Shown: positions 7,761-20,490 of the stretch, piece by piece
How positions within the stretch are numbered: the stretch's first letter is position 1
Layout: each line of letters starts with the position of its first letter
Translations under genes and position numbers: made by a program
Notes under the pieces: model-generated
What the model was told of the DNA's origin: nothing
What the model saw: the letters and a program-made list of their open reading frames with translations, nothing else
Databases searched by the model: none
IMG/VR virus record: IMGVR_UViG_3300026097_000009
Location: 1 to 64,000 of that record
Length of the DNA stretch: 64,000 bases
From: a virus
Strand: one strand, 5' to 3'

Positions 7761-7789
7761 ATATTAACACCTATTATGTTAAATATCAA
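7761..7789 (-). promoter_or_regulatory. Sigma70-like promoter with extended -10
   Basis: TTGATA (7789-7784), 17 nt spacer ending TGT, TAATAT (7766-7761), 6 nt before ATG 7754. Confidence 0.6.
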
Positions 7790-8609
7790 GAAGTAATTGC
7801 TCTAAGGCAGTTCCATTTTCTATTTCAGATACCAACCATTCTGTGTGACAGAGTTTAACAAACCAGTCATCTCTTTGCGGAGATCTAAAATCAGAAGATT
7901 CAATATTTGAGTAATGTTGAGTTACTGGATAGGCCAAACTATGATCAGATACTATTACAGGTGTTCCGTGAATTGCTCCTAATATTCCAGGCCCGCTACA
8001 AAAATTAACTATGCAATGATAATTGTAATTCATATCGTAGTCATCATATGAATTTTTTAGTTTTGTCGGCCGTTCTACTTTTACATTAGGTATAGTTATT
8101 GGGCATCTTGGATGTGGTCTGATAATAACAGGTCTATCCGACCATTTGCGTATTTCTTGAATTTGCTGATAGGCCCACTTTTGCATAGCTGGCTGTCCTT
8201 CCCATTGCAAACTTTTAGTATGCTGGAGTGCAACTAAAATCTCGCCACGGCGTTTGTATACATGATCTTTTAGTTGTAATCCTAATCTAGACGGTCTATT
8301 ATAATTTAAATTAGAATTATTTGCAAATACGCCGAGATTGTTAATATTATTAAGACAGAGTTTCCAGGTTACATTTCTTTTAAGGGTGCCGATCTCAACT
8401 ATCAACACTGGTTTATTTTTCTTTCTAGCGGCGTGATAAATCTGTTTGTTATCTTGCATACGCCCTTGCCACAGCACACTCCATATAACAGGAATATCTT
8501 CGTTATTGTCGACAATTTCATGCCCAAGGCGTCTCAGCCCTGTTTCTACTGCGTTGAAAATCGGTTCGCTATTTAAAGCTCCGTGTTGTCTATATATTTT
8601 GAACTTCAT
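7779..8609 (-). CDS. KpsC/KpsS-like capsule-synthesis glycosyltransferase
   Basis: ILVALQ...SLQW, VIIRPHP, VNFCSGPGILGAIHGTPV. Confidence 0.7.
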   Translation of the reverse strand: MKFKIYRQHGALNSEPIFNAVETGLRRLGHEIVDNNEDIPVIWSVLWQGRMQDNKQIYHAARKKNKPVLIVEIGTLKRNVTWKLCLNNINNLGVFANNSNLNYNRPSRLGLQLKDHVYKRRGEILVALQHTKSLQWEGQPAMQKWAYQQIQEIRKWSDRPVIIRPHPRCPITIPNVKVERPTKLKNSYDDYDMNYNYHCIVNFCSGPGILGAIHGTPVIVSDHSLAYPVTQHYSNIESSDFRSPQRDDWFVKLCHTEWLVSEIENGTALEQLLLDI

Positions 8610-8620
8610 CTGTATAGAAA

Positions 8621-8639
8621 TAAATAATCTACGTATTTA
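8621..8639. promoter_or_regulatory. Pair of opposed late-promoter motifs between divergent genes
   Basis: TAAATA on + at 8621-8626 and on - at 8639-8634, within a 35-bp divergent intergenic gap. Confidence 0.55.
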
Positions 8640-8644
8640 ATATT

Positions 8645-9055
8645 ATGAGCAATTTCAAAAAAATAATTCAAAAAATTGTAAGAGGGTCTACTAATTGCCT
8701 TGCGGTTAATGTTCCCTATAACGATCTCGAAGTATTGATTGAAATATTCGACTGCGTGTTTGTGTTGGATCACGAAAAAGAAATCTATAGGCATCGGTCT
8801 TTAGTATATAGAGAAAGTTACGATTCCCTAGGAAGCTTACCCGACATAAAATTAATCATGTGCAATGAAAAAGAACTAATTAATTTTAGTAAGTTTTTAC
8901 CAATTATAGGAAAAACCAAACCTGACTTTTGTATTCTTCAAGGTACACACATCAAGCCAGAATACTCTAAAGAATTATTAGGTGCAGGTTATATGGATAT
9001 TCATAAAAGAAAACATTTTCAGTTTTGGCGCCACAGAGGAAAAAATAAGAAATGA
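8645..9055 (+). CDS. Hypothetical protein
   Basis: 136-aa ORF coupled to gmd by an ATGA overlap. Confidence 0.6.
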
Positions 9056-17818: not shown

Positions 17819-18384
17819 ATCATTTTTATCACGATATAGAAGGATTTATGAACCAACGAAATCGTATCATGTTAGACCTTGTTATCGATAGTTTTCCGGA
17901 TAATGGAACATGGGTCGAGTTAGGGTCTTGGATGGGGAGAAGTACAGCATATTGTGTGGTTGAATTAATTAATTCTAAAAAAATAGGAAAATTTTATTGT
18001 ATCGATACTTGGGAAGGAGGTGATACTCTTGAAGCACATTCGTCGGTTGTATCCGGTAGTGCCCGTGATATTTTTTTGAAAAATATTGATTCTATTCGAA
18101 ATTACGTTACAGATATAAAAAGCTTCAGTGCAAACGCATCAAGTAAATTCGAAGATGAGTCTGTAGATTTTTGTTACGTGGATGCTTTACACACATATGA
18201 AGGTGTAATGTTAGATTTAGAAGCATGGTGGCCTAAGATTCGGCCGGGATGTTATTTCGGAGGCGATGATTATACCAAAGGATGGCCCGGAGTTGGTAAA
18301 GCTGTAAACGATTTTTTCGGAGAGAAAAATATTAAAGTCAGTAAAAGTGGTAGATGTTGGATTGTAAAGAAGCCTGTATTATGA
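17815..18384 (+). CDS. Methyltransferase (Methyltransf_24-like)
   Basis: VELGSWMGRS, IDTW, YVDALHTYE, GGDDY. Confidence 0.85.
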   Translation: MNHFYHDIEGFMNQRNRIMLDLVIDSFPDNGTWVELGSWMGRSTAYCVVELINSKKIGKFYCIDTWEGGDTLEAHSSVVSGSARDIFLKNIDSIRNYVTDIKSFSANASSKFEDESVDFCYVDALHTYEGVMLDLEAWWPKIRPGCYFGGDDYTKGWPGVGKAVNDFFGEKNIKVSKSGRCWIVKKPVL

Positions 18385-18427
18385 ATTATTACAATAGATT
18401 ATGTTGTTGTACAAGTGAGGTATATAG

Positions 18428-19213
18428 ATGATAGTCGAAGCTTTTATGTTTAATGACGAATTTGAAATGCTAGACATTCGTCTAAAAATTATGAATCCTT
18501 ATGTTGATAAATTTATAATATTGGAAGGAAACAAAACATGGAGCGGAAACGACAAGCCTTATCATCTAAGCAACCATATAACAAACTATGATCAATATAA
18601 AGATAAAATAGAAATTATTAAACTAAAAATACCTAAAGATTTTAAAGACTGGAAATGCGAAAACTACAGTAGAACGAGCTTGCAACAGAGTATTGATAAA
18701 CTAGACGATAATGATATTGTTATTCATAGCGACTTAGATGAAATTTTAAACCCAGAAAAATTATCAGAATTATTGCAATTATTAGAAACAGAAAATAAAC
18801 CTGTAAATTGTCGGTGTTCGATGTATGCATATTCATTCGATAGAAAGCTTAAAAGAGACTGGTATGGTCCTGTTATAGCAAAAAAATATATGTTTGACAA
18901 CCCTCAACAATTATATAAAGGAAATAATCATAAAAGAAAAGACAGAAGTCATTGTTGTAGGGTTCATGAAAATGTTGGCTGGCATTGGACTTGGATTGGC
19001 AACGATGATCGGATTAAAAATAAAGTCGTTAGCTGTATAGAATCACAGTATCGAGATCCCGATCAAGTACTAGAAGCATTTAAATCTAACGATACAAAAT
19101 CAGCCATAAATCACAAATGTGATTCGTATTTAATAACTGAATTTGATTATCCCGAATCTGTATTAAATATTATACAACAATACCCTTACTGGAGTAAACA
19201 AGAAAATGAATAG
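18428..19213 (+). CDS. GT17-like (beta-1,4-N-acetylglucosaminyltransferase-type) glycosyltransferase
   Basis: FNDEFEMLDIRL, VDKFIILEG..TWSG..KP, SDLDEI, GWHWT. Confidence 0.85.
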   Translation: MIVEAFMFNDEFEMLDIRLKIMNPYVDKFIILEGNKTWSGNDKPYHLSNHITNYDQYKDKIEIIKLKIPKDFKDWKCENYSRTSLQQSIDKLDDNDIVIHSDLDEILNPEKLSELLQLLETENKPVNCRCSMYAYSFDRKLKRDWYGPVIAKKYMFDNPQQLYKGNNHKRKDRSHCCRVHENVGWHWTWIGNDDRIKNKVVSCIESQYRDPDQVLEAFKSNDTKSAINHKCDSYLITEFDYPESVLNIIQQYPYWSKQENE

Positions 19214-19766
19214 AAATCAATTATTAGAATTATTACCTAAAGAGAGTACAGGAGCTGAATTAGGCGTATGCGGTGGCGACTACAGTGAAATTATTTTAGA
19301 AATTATTCAGCCTAAGCGATTATATCTAGTGGATATTTGGAGATATATTGATTTAGGTTATCACGATAAACTAATGAGTAACGATAAAAGACAAACTGCA
19401 AGATATAGAGCTGTATATAAAAAATTTGTTCACTATGATGCTGTTAAGATTATCCGTGATTACACTCACGGATTAAAAAGTATAATCGATCCTAAATCTC
19501 TCGATTGGATTTACATAGATGCAGATCACAGTTTTAACGGATGCTATGACGATTTGAAATTAGCAGACGAATTAGTTCACAGCGACGGAGTCATTTTAGG
19601 ACACGATTACGATCCTCGACATCAAGGAACTATGGATGCAGTCGATAAGTTTGTGGAAGAAAACAATTATTTCTTAACATTAACTACTGAAGAATTTAAC
19701 TCTTCGTATTTAATTTGTAGAACAGAAGAACAACATAATACATATTTAAATATGTCTAAAGTATAA
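19206..19766 (+). CDS. Methyltransferase (Methyltransf_24-like)
   Basis: GAELGV..GDYS, VDIW, IYIDADHSF, GHDY. Confidence 0.85.
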   Translation: MNRNQLLELLPKESTGAELGVCGGDYSEIILEIIQPKRLYLVDIWRYIDLGYHDKLMSNDKRQTARYRAVYKKFVHYDAVKIIRDYTHGLKSIIDPKSLDWIYIDADHSFNGCYDDLKLADELVHSDGVILGHDYDPRHQGTMDAVDKFVEENNYFLTLTTEEFNSSYLICRTEEQHNTYLNMSKV

Positions 19767-19773
19767 CTGTTGT

Positions 19774-20490
19774 ATGAACGGAATTAAAAAAGTTAATAAC
19801 TGGTATTTTCCAGAAAACGATATAGGACAAAGCAGTTATTCGAACTGTTCGTTTGGAAATCCTATCTTAAACAGAGAGAAACTTTGTTTTATAGACGGAT
19901 TACTATATTTTAAAGATAGAACTCATGCTTTAGATATAGGGGCGAATATCGGTTATGTAACATCATGGATGTCTTTAAAATGGCCGCATGTTTCTTCTTT
20001 TGAACCAACACCTACAACATTTGAATGTCTCGAATTAAACTGTAAAAGTGATACTGTTGATCTGTATAATATCGGAATAAGTGATAAACAAGGAACTTTA
20101 AATTTTGCAGTTAATAACCACAAACCGGATCTTAATCAAATAGTTACCGAATTTAGATCTTATAAAAAGGGCTGGGATGTTTTAGAAATTCCAGTTAATA
20201 CTGTAGACAGTTTTGATTTTGATGATATAGATTTTCTCAAAATTGATGTAGAAGGTCACGAATATCAAGTAGTGAATGGTGCGATTAAAACGATTCGTAA
20301 CAATCGTCCTTTAATTATGTTAGAGATAAGTTACGAAAATAAATTAAAGGATAAAGAAATTACAAAGAATCACAAACAAGCACTCGATATTGTTTTAAAC
20401 GAAGATTATGTAGTTGCTAAACAATTCGGTTATGATTATATTTTAGCTCCTAAAGAGTGGCATCATCGAGCCCAGCAGTTCTCAACTTAA
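19774..20490 (+). CDS. FkbM-family methyltransferase
   Basis: LDIGANIG, SFEP, FLKIDVEGHE. Confidence 0.9.
   Translation: MNGIKKVNNWYFPENDIGQSSYSNCSFGNPILNREKLCFIDGLLYFKDRTHALDIGANIGYVTSWMSLKWPHVSSFEPTPTTFECLELNCKSDTVDLYNIGISDKQGTLNFAVNNHKPDLNQIVTEFRSYKKGWDVLEIPVNTVDSFDFDDIDFLKIDVEGHEYQVVNGAIKTIRNNRPLIMLEISYENKLKDKEITKNHKQALDIVLNEDYVVAKQFGYDYILAPKEWHHRAQQFST

Follow-up and report, generated by a model that had tools for sequence, protein, structure and literature searches.

A lineage-wide glycan-gene core with late-type promoters in an uncultured T4-like jumbo phage, and the candidate acceptors of its product

Why would a tailed phage carry 17 neighbouring genes for building a sugar chain, and onto what would such a chain be placed? 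These questions are raised by positions 7779 to 20490 of a 64,000-nucleotide stretch (hereafter the window), which is the first 64 kb of the IMG/VR virus record IMGVR_UViG_3300026097_000009 (154,861 bp, CheckV completeness about 44%). A first-pass annotation, made from the letters of the window, had described this island as a late-expressed machinery for a virion glycan. We observed that six of its genes form a core present throughout a diverse phage lineage, that four of its proteins are predicted to share the fold of bacterial transferases of the acidic sugar Kdo (3-deoxy-D-manno-octulosonate), and that the core is preceded by a conserved motif of the late-promoter type. The island very probably builds an acidic decorated glycan late in infection, and virion proteins are the leading candidates for its acceptor.

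By its genes, the source virus can be classed as a T4-like jumbo myovirus, uncultured. This assignment is made because the island is surrounded by genes for a helicase, UvsY, UvsX, a gp32-type single-stranded DNA-binding protein, the large terminase (TerL), the tail tube and the sheath, and because of the relatives of two of these proteins: TerL shares 55% identity with its counterpart in Pseudomonas jumbo phage PA5oct and 47-51% with the terminases of Atu_ph07 and Phosso, and the closest relatives of the sheath are likewise PA5oct, Atu_ph07 and Phosso. Three relatives of 167-268 kb, estimated by CheckV as 46-75% complete, point to a full genome of about 355 kb. None of 50,697 phage records matched the island at the nucleotide level. 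Membership of the lineage in the "moraphages" was considered and rejected: in the available part of their description (PMC12619734) these phages are without much of the large-phage machinery, reach at most 307 kb and have been assigned Bacteroidota hosts. Two genes past the helicase that flanks the island lies a gene for a 2-oxoglutarate (2OG)-Fe(II) oxygenase (window 4027-4641; PF13759, E 6e-20), and related oxygenases occur in the variable slots of relatives described below.

Gene content of the island and its conserved core

All 17 open reading frames (ORFs) of the first-pass annotation were recovered at the positions given for them, and their arrangement in four units starting from two divergent junctions, each with TAAATA on both strands, was borne out. 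Unit 1 is a seven-gene operon on the minus strand (16430 to 10838), unit 2 is the six-gene right arm (16471 to 20490), unit 3 contains three genes (8645 to 10849) and unit 4 is the single gene headed by junction 1 (8609 to 7779). Three starts were refined to coupled ATGs (GT8 at 15663, sulfotransferase at 14983, GT-A paralogue at 11560), and the first gene of the right arm starts at 16471, not 16429; with the refined starts the genes are tightly coupled, through ATGA or short overlaps. The features are as follows (genes are designated below by their lower coordinate):

7779-8609, minus: KpsC/WbbB-fold paralogue of the QxxxS plus RxHP type, core; no Pfam or PHROG match; motifs LQHTKS and RPHP; in 27/29 relatives sampled through uvsY
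8610-8644: divergent junction 1; TAAATA at 8621-8626 (plus), 24 nt before ATG 8645, and at 8634-8639 (minus), 30 nt before ATG 8609
8645-9055, plus: 136-aa protein, possibly a small class I methyltransferase-like Rossmann core (a lead); 4-nt overlap of its 3' end with the start of GMD
9052-10038, plus: GDP-mannose 4,6-dehydratase (GMD), strain-specific accessory; PF16363, E 4e-118; 2 partial matches in 80 related loci
10028-10849, plus: new GT-A glycosyltransferase of predicted retaining-type fold (model, Foldseek), DxD at D127/D129, core, inverted here; 33% identity to Mosig_00189
10838-11560, minus: diverged GT-A paralogue (23-26% identity), which closes the seven-gene operon; coupled to 11557-12492 through ATGA; weak GT8/GT2 Pfam matches
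11557-12492, minus: KpsC/WbbB-fold paralogue of the QxxxG plus RxHP type, core; AlphaFold2 (AF2) model, Foldseek and VIA-align; motifs LQRNGG and RGHP
12489-13505, minus: KpsC/WbbB-fold paralogue with both Kdo-transferase motifs, accessory duplicate; Q156-L-P-G-D160 and R190-x-H192-P193
13495-14298, minus: KpsC/WbbB-fold paralogue without Gln/Asp and HP motifs, core; hhalign E 7e-34; 31% identity to Mosig_00187
14336-14983, minus: carbohydrate-type sulfotransferase, strain-specific accessory; PF03567 (Sulfotransfer_2), E 3e-15; in 6/80 loci
14983-15663, minus: GT8 retaining glycosyltransferase, core, ATGA-coupled to the nucleotidyltransferase-cupin gene; PF01501, E 5e-10
15660-16430, minus: fusion of a HIGH-type (cytidylyltransferase-like) nucleotidyltransferase and a cupin of the phosphomannose isomerase type, first gene of the core operon; PF01467, E 3e-15; PF01050, E 2e-17
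16431-16470: divergent junction 2; TAAATA-N5-ATG on both arms, at 16436-16441 (minus) and 16460-16465 (plus)
16471-17106, plus: probable Methyltransf_24-like S-adenosylmethionine (SAM) methyltransferase (a lead), first gene of the right arm, accessory; phrog_24975 (a family with no assigned function), E 8e-34; ESM Atlas 0.97
17096-17818, plus: glycosyltransferase of PHROG phrog_1962, accessory; E 8e-14; 30% identity to Mosig_00183
17815-18384, plus: Methyltransf_24 SAM methyltransferase, accessory; PF13578, E 9e-21
18428-19213, plus: GT17-family glycosyltransferase, accessory; PF04724, E 7e-22
19206-19766, plus: Methyltransf_24 SAM methyltransferase, accessory; PF13578, E 2e-10
19774-20490, plus: FkbM-family methyltransferase, accessory; PF05050, E 3e-19

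The proposed count of about nine glycosyltransferase-like proteins corresponds to four KpsC/WbbB-fold proteins, two GT-A paralogues, the GT8 and GT17 enzymes and the phrog_1962 member; GMD, the cytidylyltransferase-cupin and the sulfotransferase were confirmed by Pfam with the E values listed. Three of the four methyltransferases are likewise Pfam members (two Methyltransf_24, one FkbM). The fourth, 16471-17106, is a protein-language-model match: compared by BLASTP with the neighbouring methyltransferase 17815-18384 it showed no similarity, and its label comes entirely from the Atlas. The small 8645-9055 protein has no family match; its ESM Atlas model resembles methyltransferase clusters with TM scores of 0.76-0.82, and a homologue is present in two related loci (L068 and L076). 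Two pairs of convergent genes overlap at their 3' ends, FkbM and uvsY by 41 nt (20450-20490) and the GT-A gene and its paralogue by 12 nt (10838-10849), leaving no space for a terminator, so that antisense read-through is possible.

Comparison of island content among relatives, as the first-pass annotation had suggested, separated a six-gene core from a hypervariable accessory set. The nucleotidyltransferase-cupin fusion has 296 relatives in IMG/VR. Their long loci share one order: uvsX, uvsY, a variable slot, nucleotidyltransferase-cupin, GT8, homologues of 13495, 11557, 10028 and 7779, a further gene, and helicase; from uvsX to helicase all genes are co-directional. As a guard against ascertainment bias the lineage was resampled through UvsY alone, counting the 29 loci that extend 8.6 kb or more downstream. 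Of these, 29/29 had the first four genes of the core, 26/29 the GT-A gene and 27/29 the 7779 homologue. The six-gene core, composed of the nucleotidyltransferase-cupin, GT8, three KpsC/WbbB-fold paralogues and the GT-A enzyme, is lineage-wide. Its transferases are about 40-45% identical across the lineage, versus about 80% for UvsX.

In relatives, the slot that separates uvsY from the core has a length of 18 bp to 9.6 kb; in this window it is the six-gene right arm. Elsewhere it holds FkbM and GXM-type sugar methyltransferases, GT25 and GT77-like transferases, an MptE/Maf-like protein, a CTP_transf_3-RraA aldolase fusion, 2OG oxygenases and radical-SAM enzymes. The fusion, seen in one relative (L009:6044-7348), joins a CTP_transf_3 domain of the CMP-ulosonic-acid-synthetase type to an RraA-like aldolase, and its gene adjoins that of the MptE/Maf-like protein; the MptE/Maf-like family serves to glycosylate flagellin with nonulosonic acids. 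Of 80 related loci, few or none contain GMD, 8645-9055, the sulfotransferase or the duplicates 12489-13505 and 10838-11560. A reading of the full 12.7 kb as a single mobile island was rejected: GC content does not set it apart from its flanks, and six of its genes are a syntenic core.

A Kdo-transferase fold and the expected product

Searches of Pfam, PHROGs and NCBIfam with the five or six unannotated island proteins gave nothing usable. The six family-less proteins resolve into two paralogous families, one of KpsC/WbbB fold and one of GT-A enzymes. The first comprises 7779-8609, 11557-12492, 12489-13505 and 13495-14298. In profile-profile comparison (hhalign) with the 11557 family, 7779-8609 gave E 3e-42 and 13495-14298 E 7e-34, and the 12489-13505 protein aligns within the 11557 family (MAFFT). 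An AF2 model of 11557-12492, built on 24 homologues, has a mean predicted confidence (pLDDT) of 91. Foldseek ranked KpsC, WbbB and KrkA first for this model (KpsC E 4e-8, WbbB 1e-6). The same three proteins were retrieved from 48,161 chains by VIA-align, which is independent of Foldseek: KpsC with Z 13.8 and 13.4, WbbB with 13.1 and KrkA with 12.2, over 241-252 aligned residues for these top four, the next match having Z 10.2. On the strength of these models, the predicted fold of this Pfam-less family is that of the retaining beta-Kdo transferases (a modified GT-B fold; KpsC, WbbB, KrkA).

Two signatures characterize the retaining Kdo transferases: QxxxD, with a carboxylate-binding Gln and a nucleophilic Asp (Q189...D193 in KrkA), and (K/R)xHP, which binds cytidine monophosphate (CMP) and corresponds to H227-P228 in KrkA (PMC12887879). 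The four paralogues differ in these motifs:

12489-13505: Gln/Asp motif Q156-L-P-G-D160; HP motif R190-P-H192-P193
11557-12492: Gln/Asp motif QRNGG, no Asp; HP motif RGHP
7779-8609: Gln/Asp motif QHTKS, no Asp; HP motif RPHP
13495-14298: no Gln/Asp motif; no HP motif

The (K/R)xHP motif is thus present in three of the four paralogues, and it is invariant within their families. For 12489-13505 all five motif residues are invariant across 29 diverse homologues, and the distance from Asp to His is 32 residues, versus 34 in KrkA; the positional equivalence of QxxxD is based on family alignment and motif spacing, not on residue-level superposition. A motif census of about 160 related loci, with 308 family matches, gave 68 QxxxG/RxHP, 44 QxxxS/RxHP and 29 QxxxD/RxHP proteins, and about 135 with neither motif. 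A canonical QxxxD/RxHP subclass exists beside Asp-less ones, including in this window.

At the sequence level no such link was found. Pfam, including Capsule_synth (PF05159), returned no family for the KpsC-like proteins at E <= 0.01, and the four family alignments together with the 29-member 12489 alignment retrieved no KpsC, WbbB or KrkA chain when compared with all PDB sequences (E <= 1 to 10). The 531 homologues of the 12489-13505 family are all unnamed and Pfam-less. KpsC/KpsS (GT107), the N-terminal domain of WbbB (GT99) and KrkA (GT140) share the modified GT-B fold; 12489-13505 has the same motifs as these enzymes at the right spacing and three paralogues have RxHP. The island genes differ from them in being phage-encoded, driven by late-type promoters and without a KpsMT or O-antigen context, and in having no sequence-level match.

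Genes for Kdo supply were found near the core in relatives. Three long relatives have adjacent genes for KdsA (PF00793, E about 1e-53) and a KdsB-like protein (PF02348, E about 1e-25). Among the 27 relatives whose loci extend 9.8 kb or more beyond the nucleotidyltransferase-cupin gene, 11 carry kdsA-kdsB at most 10 kb away, just beyond the helicase. The island glycan is probably Kdo-type and acidic, because of the modelled KpsC/WbbB/KrkA fold, the complete motifs of 12489-13505 and the proximity of kdsA-kdsB to the core in relatives.

The second family consists of 10028-10849 and 10838-11560. An invariant W-x-D-x-D (W125, D127, D129) is found in the 10028-10849 family. The AF2 model of 10028-10849 (pLDDT 90.7) matches alpha-1,3-GalT, the blood-group enzymes GTA/GTB and XXYLT1 (Foldseek, E 2e-7 to 6e-7), which suggests a retaining fold like those of GT6 and GT8. 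The GT8 enzyme is 46% identical to Mosig_00188 and 30% identical to CcrColossus gp129. For the nucleotidyltransferase domain the closest solved structures are ethanolamine-phosphate and glycerol-3-phosphate cytidylyltransferases and an RfaE-like protein (RfaE domain II); judging by this, its substrate could be a phospho-alcohol or a sugar-1-phosphate. Outside the island, the following pair probably supplies 3'-phosphoadenosine 5'-phosphosulfate (PAPS) to the island sulfotransferase:

835-1881, minus: adenosine 5'-phosphosulfate (APS)-kinase-like gene (PF01583, E 3e-8) and a small HIGH-type nucleotidyltransferase gene (PF01467, weak)

These two genes adjoin a peptide deformylase gene (window 835-2450).

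The first-pass annotation had predicted a methylated, sulfated, deoxyhexose-containing glycan. Such parts are retained as strain-specific additions; what it had not foreseen is that the conserved machinery points to a Kdo-type ulosonic acid. In the mechanism that we propose, the nucleotidyltransferase-cupin would activate a sugar phosphate or alcohol phosphate, the GT8 and GT-A enzymes would add hexoses, and the three to four paralogues of CMP-Kdo-transferase fold would add a Kdo-type ulosonic acid. GMD would open a 6-deoxyhexose branch, the sulfotransferase, fed by the phage PAPS genes, would add sulfate, the four methyltransferases would add O-methyl groups, and the GT17-like and GT-A enzymes would contribute further sugars. 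The product would be an acidic, decorated and strain-variable glycan, most likely on virion proteins.

Late-type promoters of the core operon

The distribution of TAAATA was analyzed over the genes of the record. Within 50 nt upstream of starts, no other hexamer is as enriched (27/142 genes versus 2.6 expected, about tenfold). The octamer AATAAATA lies within 50 nt of the start in 11 genes, for a total of 14 occurrences in the genome. At unit heads, TAAATA is found in 15/29 cases in the structural block (23-131 kb), in 4/6 in the island and in 1/17 in the replication and other blocks. Among annotated genes it precedes those for TerL, tail tube, sheath, baseplate hub and wedge, one virion structural protein and one fibre-like protein, in agreement with the earlier statement that the island shares this motif with terminase and tail genes (TerL, tail tube, sheath, baseplate).

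The motif often stands exactly five bases from the start codon. TAAATA-N5-ATG was found at TerL, the tail tube, 28731-29273, 37113-37871, 76328-76597, the baseplate wedge gene at 98283, 152244-152837 and both arms of junction 2. The box sites are the following:

window: 27769-27785, 31676-31692, 29273-29289, 37871-37887 and 16430-16475
genome: 76597-76613, 98267-98285 and 152837-152853

These sites have no Shine-Dalgarno sequence; in the other late units the box is 24-34 nt upstream and is accompanied by GGAG. In T4, transcription begins about six bases past the TATAAATA box. The five-base spacing, together with this start distance, would place +1 at the A of the ATG, and the late mRNAs with TAAATA-N5-ATG are therefore, by analogy with T4, probably leaderless.

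This arrangement is conserved before the core. TAAATA-N5-ATG precedes the nucleotidyltransferase-cupin gene in 44/52 distinct relatives and in 31/42 of the UvsY sample, often as the full TATAAATA. Before each of core genes two to five (GT8, the homologues of 13495 and 11557, and GT-A), TAAATA was found in 0 of 23-35 relatives, so that the first five core genes behave as one operon. The sixth core gene, the 7779 homologue, is preceded by TAAATA in 9/27 relatives. A gp55-type late sigma factor is encoded at genome 91412-92338 on the minus strand (phrog_12791, E 2e-84; T4 gp55, E 3.5e-6). It has 308 aa versus 185 aa in T4; residues 39-115 of T4 gp55 are the part that aligned, and the extra part is N-terminal. 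Sigma-70-like sites are not enriched in the island (56 versus 54.7 +/- 7.0 expected), and none is convincing at unit heads.

Late-type control of the island is strongly indicated by the motif, its conserved spacing, the gp55-type sigma factor and the lack of sigma-70 enrichment, and the proposed late timing of its expression is probable. In the proposed mechanism, the core operon would start at a gp55-type late promoter close to its ATG and give an mRNA that is probably leaderless. T4 late promoters (TATAAATA, gp55 with gp33 and the clamp) resemble those described here in the core motif, the association with structural genes and a gp55 homologue; they differ in that here exactly 5 nt often separate the motif from the ATG, and we know of no leaderless late mRNA in T4.

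What the glycan is placed on

As a whole, the island would be a late-transcribed, wholly cytoplasmic glycan-assembly system of a T4-like jumbo phage of about 355 kb. No island protein has a transmembrane-like segment (hydrophobic 19-mer over threshold), and throughout the 154,861 bp an ORF has one such segment at most. The reported lack of flippase, ABC transporter, Wzy and Wzz was borne out within this record, about 44% of the genome: it has no polytopic membrane ORF, the kind expected for an initiating polyprenyl-phosphate transferase, a flippase or ABC permease, a polymerase or a chain-length regulator.

As the acceptor we favour a virion protein, or several, that would receive the glycan in the cytoplasm while particles are assembled; this best guess comes close to, and slightly short of, an even chance. 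It is preferred because of the core-genome status of the module, its late signal and the homologous pairs that unrelated phages have beside structural genes. In belonging to the core genome across a diverse lineage, the module is unlike host-specific morons. As to the pairs, the Caulobacter siphovirus CcrColossus has gp128 (KpsC-like) and gp129 (GT8) between a 1665-aa tail protein and the lysis cassette, accompanied by three more genes annotated as glycosyltransferase-like. In the podovirus MW202713 (complete, 42.7 kb), a member of the KpsC-like family, a methyltransferase and a transferase annotated "TibC" lie directly upstream of terminase, portal and capsid genes. The family homologue of MW202713.1 (L180:4966-5604; record about 37094-37732) falls in a CDS-free stretch (without annotated coding sequence) upstream of the genes for a pyridoxal-phosphate (PLP) enzyme and the terminase, and is probably a missed gene call. 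The phage studied here also has, in its own fibre gene block (window 48494-50877), a NodU/CmcH-type carbamoyltransferase (full, E 1e-58) and a 2OG-Fe(II) oxygenase, which constitute a second sugar- or protein-tailoring module near structural genes.

Several observations weigh against a virion glycan of Kdo type. The neighbours of the island are recombination genes (uvsY, uvsX, gp32, helicase), not structural genes, and its transferases are not embedded in or beside capsid or tail genes. A late promoter need not point to the virion: in T4, non-structural genes such as uvsY and uvsW are under late promoters as well. Three of the four KpsC-like paralogues have no catalytic Asp, and one has no CMP-binding HP either; the Asp-less paralogues keep the scaffold and probably have altered chemistry or use other donors. 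HMM (hidden Markov model) and tblastn searches did not find kdsA and kdsB in the phage's own 155-kb fragment; these genes may lie in the missing 56% of the genome, or CMP-Kdo may be supplied by the host. Finally, KpsC/KpsS, WbbB and LPS (lipopolysaccharide)-core GT8 enzymes are peripheral and act at the cytoplasmic face on lipid-linked acceptors, with export by MsbA, KpsMT or Wzm-Wzt. The step from a lack of exporters to a cytoplasmic acceptor, made in the first-pass annotation, is for this reason weak, and the more so as 44% of the genome was seen.

Remodelling of the host envelope is the next explanation to consider, and we regard it as unlikely. The enzymes would modify the nascent LPS core, the phosphatidylglycerol-Kdo capsule linker or an undecaprenyl-linked glycan, export would be ensured by host MsbA/Lpt, KpsMT or Wzm-Wzt, and the effect would be to mask receptors on infected cells and debris or to change recognition by grazers or other phages. 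The toolkit does resemble that of LPS core and capsule (KpsC/WbbB fold, GT8, GT25 in relatives, an RfaE- or TagD-like nucleotidyltransferase), the bacterial counterparts are peripheral and without transmembrane segments like the island enzymes, and the mini-island of Pelagibacter phage Mosig sits among nrd and RuvC genes. Published opinion also takes cyanophage genes for "cell wall synthesis and modification" as a change of host surface (PMC12801897). However, under a late-type promoter export would have little time before lysis, the module is fixed lineage-wide (29/29) and is not a host-specific moron, no initiating polyprenyl-phosphate transferase or polytopic membrane protein is encoded in the 155 kb, and the homologous pairs of other phages are located inside structural or late blocks.

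Another cytoplasmic product, improbable in our estimate, would be a free or lipid-anchored acidic polysaccharide, packaged or released at lysis as a decoy or matrix, or else a glycan on non-structural phage or host proteins. All island enzymes are soluble, and a motif-less paralogue of the 13495 type with a CDP-alcohol-type nucleotidyltransferase would fit a phosphodiester-linked chemistry resembling that of teichoic acids; against this, it is without precedent in tailed phages, and every glycosyltransferase needs a primer, for which none is suggested.

Hypermodification of DNA, in which Kdo, heptose or an oligosaccharide would be put on a modified base shortly before packaging, is very improbable: phage GT-B enzymes do put Kdo, heptose, di- and trisaccharides on 5-hydroxymethylcytosine, once with a cytidylyltransferase (bioRxiv 10.1101/2023.12.21.572611), the island lies among DNA recombination genes and three of the paralogues are basic (isoelectric point 9.1-9.2), but nine transferases with sulfation and fourfold methylation far exceed known DNA glycans, T4 beta-GT is absent among the structural matches listed, and no pathway to an acceptor base came up: Tet/JBP (PF12851) gave no match (a weak answer, as no control genome matched either), and a PF00303 search gave a canonical ThyA (332 bits) in one relative only, the fragments searched being at most 75% complete.

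Returning to virion proteins as acceptor, we tentatively suggest, with more doubt than for the acceptor itself, that a very abundant uncultured marine/aquatic lineage of T4-like phages of about 355 kb coats its virions with a strain-variable, sulfated and O-methylated Kdo glycan, the slot being a phage "serotype" locus. Its synthesis would be wholly cytoplasmic, directed by leaderless late mRNAs and carried out by a Pfam-less branch of the Kdo-transferase fold that is peculiar to phages. Should the glycan indeed coat the particle, tailed phages of Gram-negative hosts would have their first example of a complex acidic (LPS-core-like) coat, and phage "LPS gene islands", long taken as host-surface genes, would need to be re-read. 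The core with its hypervariable slot would then be a genetic handle on the diversity of virion surfaces in the ocean, which matters for decay, aggregation, grazing and adsorption. Independently of the acceptor, a large unannotated enzyme family is defined, whose motif classes (QxxxD, QxxxG, QxxxS, none) suggest new chemistry on a Kdo-transferase scaffold, and leaderless late mRNAs are predicted for a T4-like phage from the constant TAAATA-N5-ATG spacing. Homologous gene sets in two cultured phages, Mosig and CcrColossus, make the acceptor question directly testable there.

Known systems offer several points of comparison. Giant viruses (chlorovirus capsid glycans, mimivirus fibrils, the Kdo genes of CroV) have autonomous cytoplasmic pathways with GMD, methyltransferases and rare acidic sugars for the virion surface; they are eukaryotic viruses with unrelated transferases, and the likeness is one of analogy only. 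Mycobacteriophage virion glycosylation is known (Freeman et al. 2023, as cited in PMC12619734). As described in the available part of the citing paper, cytoplasmic phage glycosyltransferases are expressed there with structural genes, for a proposed glycan shield on capsid or tail; in those phages two to four transferases stand beside capsid genes and the glycans are demonstrated, whereas here 17 genes, predicted to be of Kdo type and known as genes alone, stand among recombination genes. The DNA glycan clusters (Pyle et al., bioRxiv 10.1101/2023.12.21.572611) combine a cytosine methyltransferase and a TET-like oxygenase with T4-beta-GT-like enzymes and place at most three sugars. In their use of LPS-type donors (Kdo, heptose) with a cytidylyltransferase helper they resemble what is proposed for the island; they differ from it by the TET-like oxygenase, for which no match was obtained here (the control search was also blank), and by the T4-beta-GT-like enzymes, not found among the structural matches listed.

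Cyanophage glycan islands, mycobacteriophage virion glycosylation and Kdo genes in one cyanophage were thus already known. New are the 29/29 core result, the motif census, the fixed TAAATA-N5-ATG architecture and three deposited phage genomes with homologous gene sets. The literature searched contained no paper on the KpsC-fold family in phages, on the conserved core operon or on its late, probably leaderless promoter, and nothing relevant on virion glycosylation or Kdo in phiCbK-like phages and Mosig. The nearest counterparts are the glycan islands of large marine myoviruses, the T4-like cyanomyophages and the pelagimyophages (S-SCSM2R, S-SSM7, P-TIM68; Mosig EXVC030M), in which soluble glycosyltransferases, methyltransferases and sugar-nucleotide enzymes are likewise clustered. 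Cyanophage genes are 50-54% identical to the nucleotidyltransferase domain of the island, and S-SCSM2R carries kdsA and kdsB (PMC12801897). In contrast to these islands, the six-gene core described here is fixed beside uvsY lineage-wide, with a conserved late-type and probably leaderless promoter, and the nucleotidyltransferase-cupin fusion was not found in any cultured phage. A single run of Mosig genes includes GT8 (46%), GT-A (33%), a sulfotransferase and two genes each of the KpsC-like and FkbM kinds. In this cultured SAR11 myophage (record 124832-130666) they belong to a nine-gene mini-island, several genes of which are annotated only as hypothetical, in the order two FkbM, GT-A, GT8, KpsC-like, sulfotransferase, second KpsC-like, a 35-aa ORF and a further glycosyltransferase.

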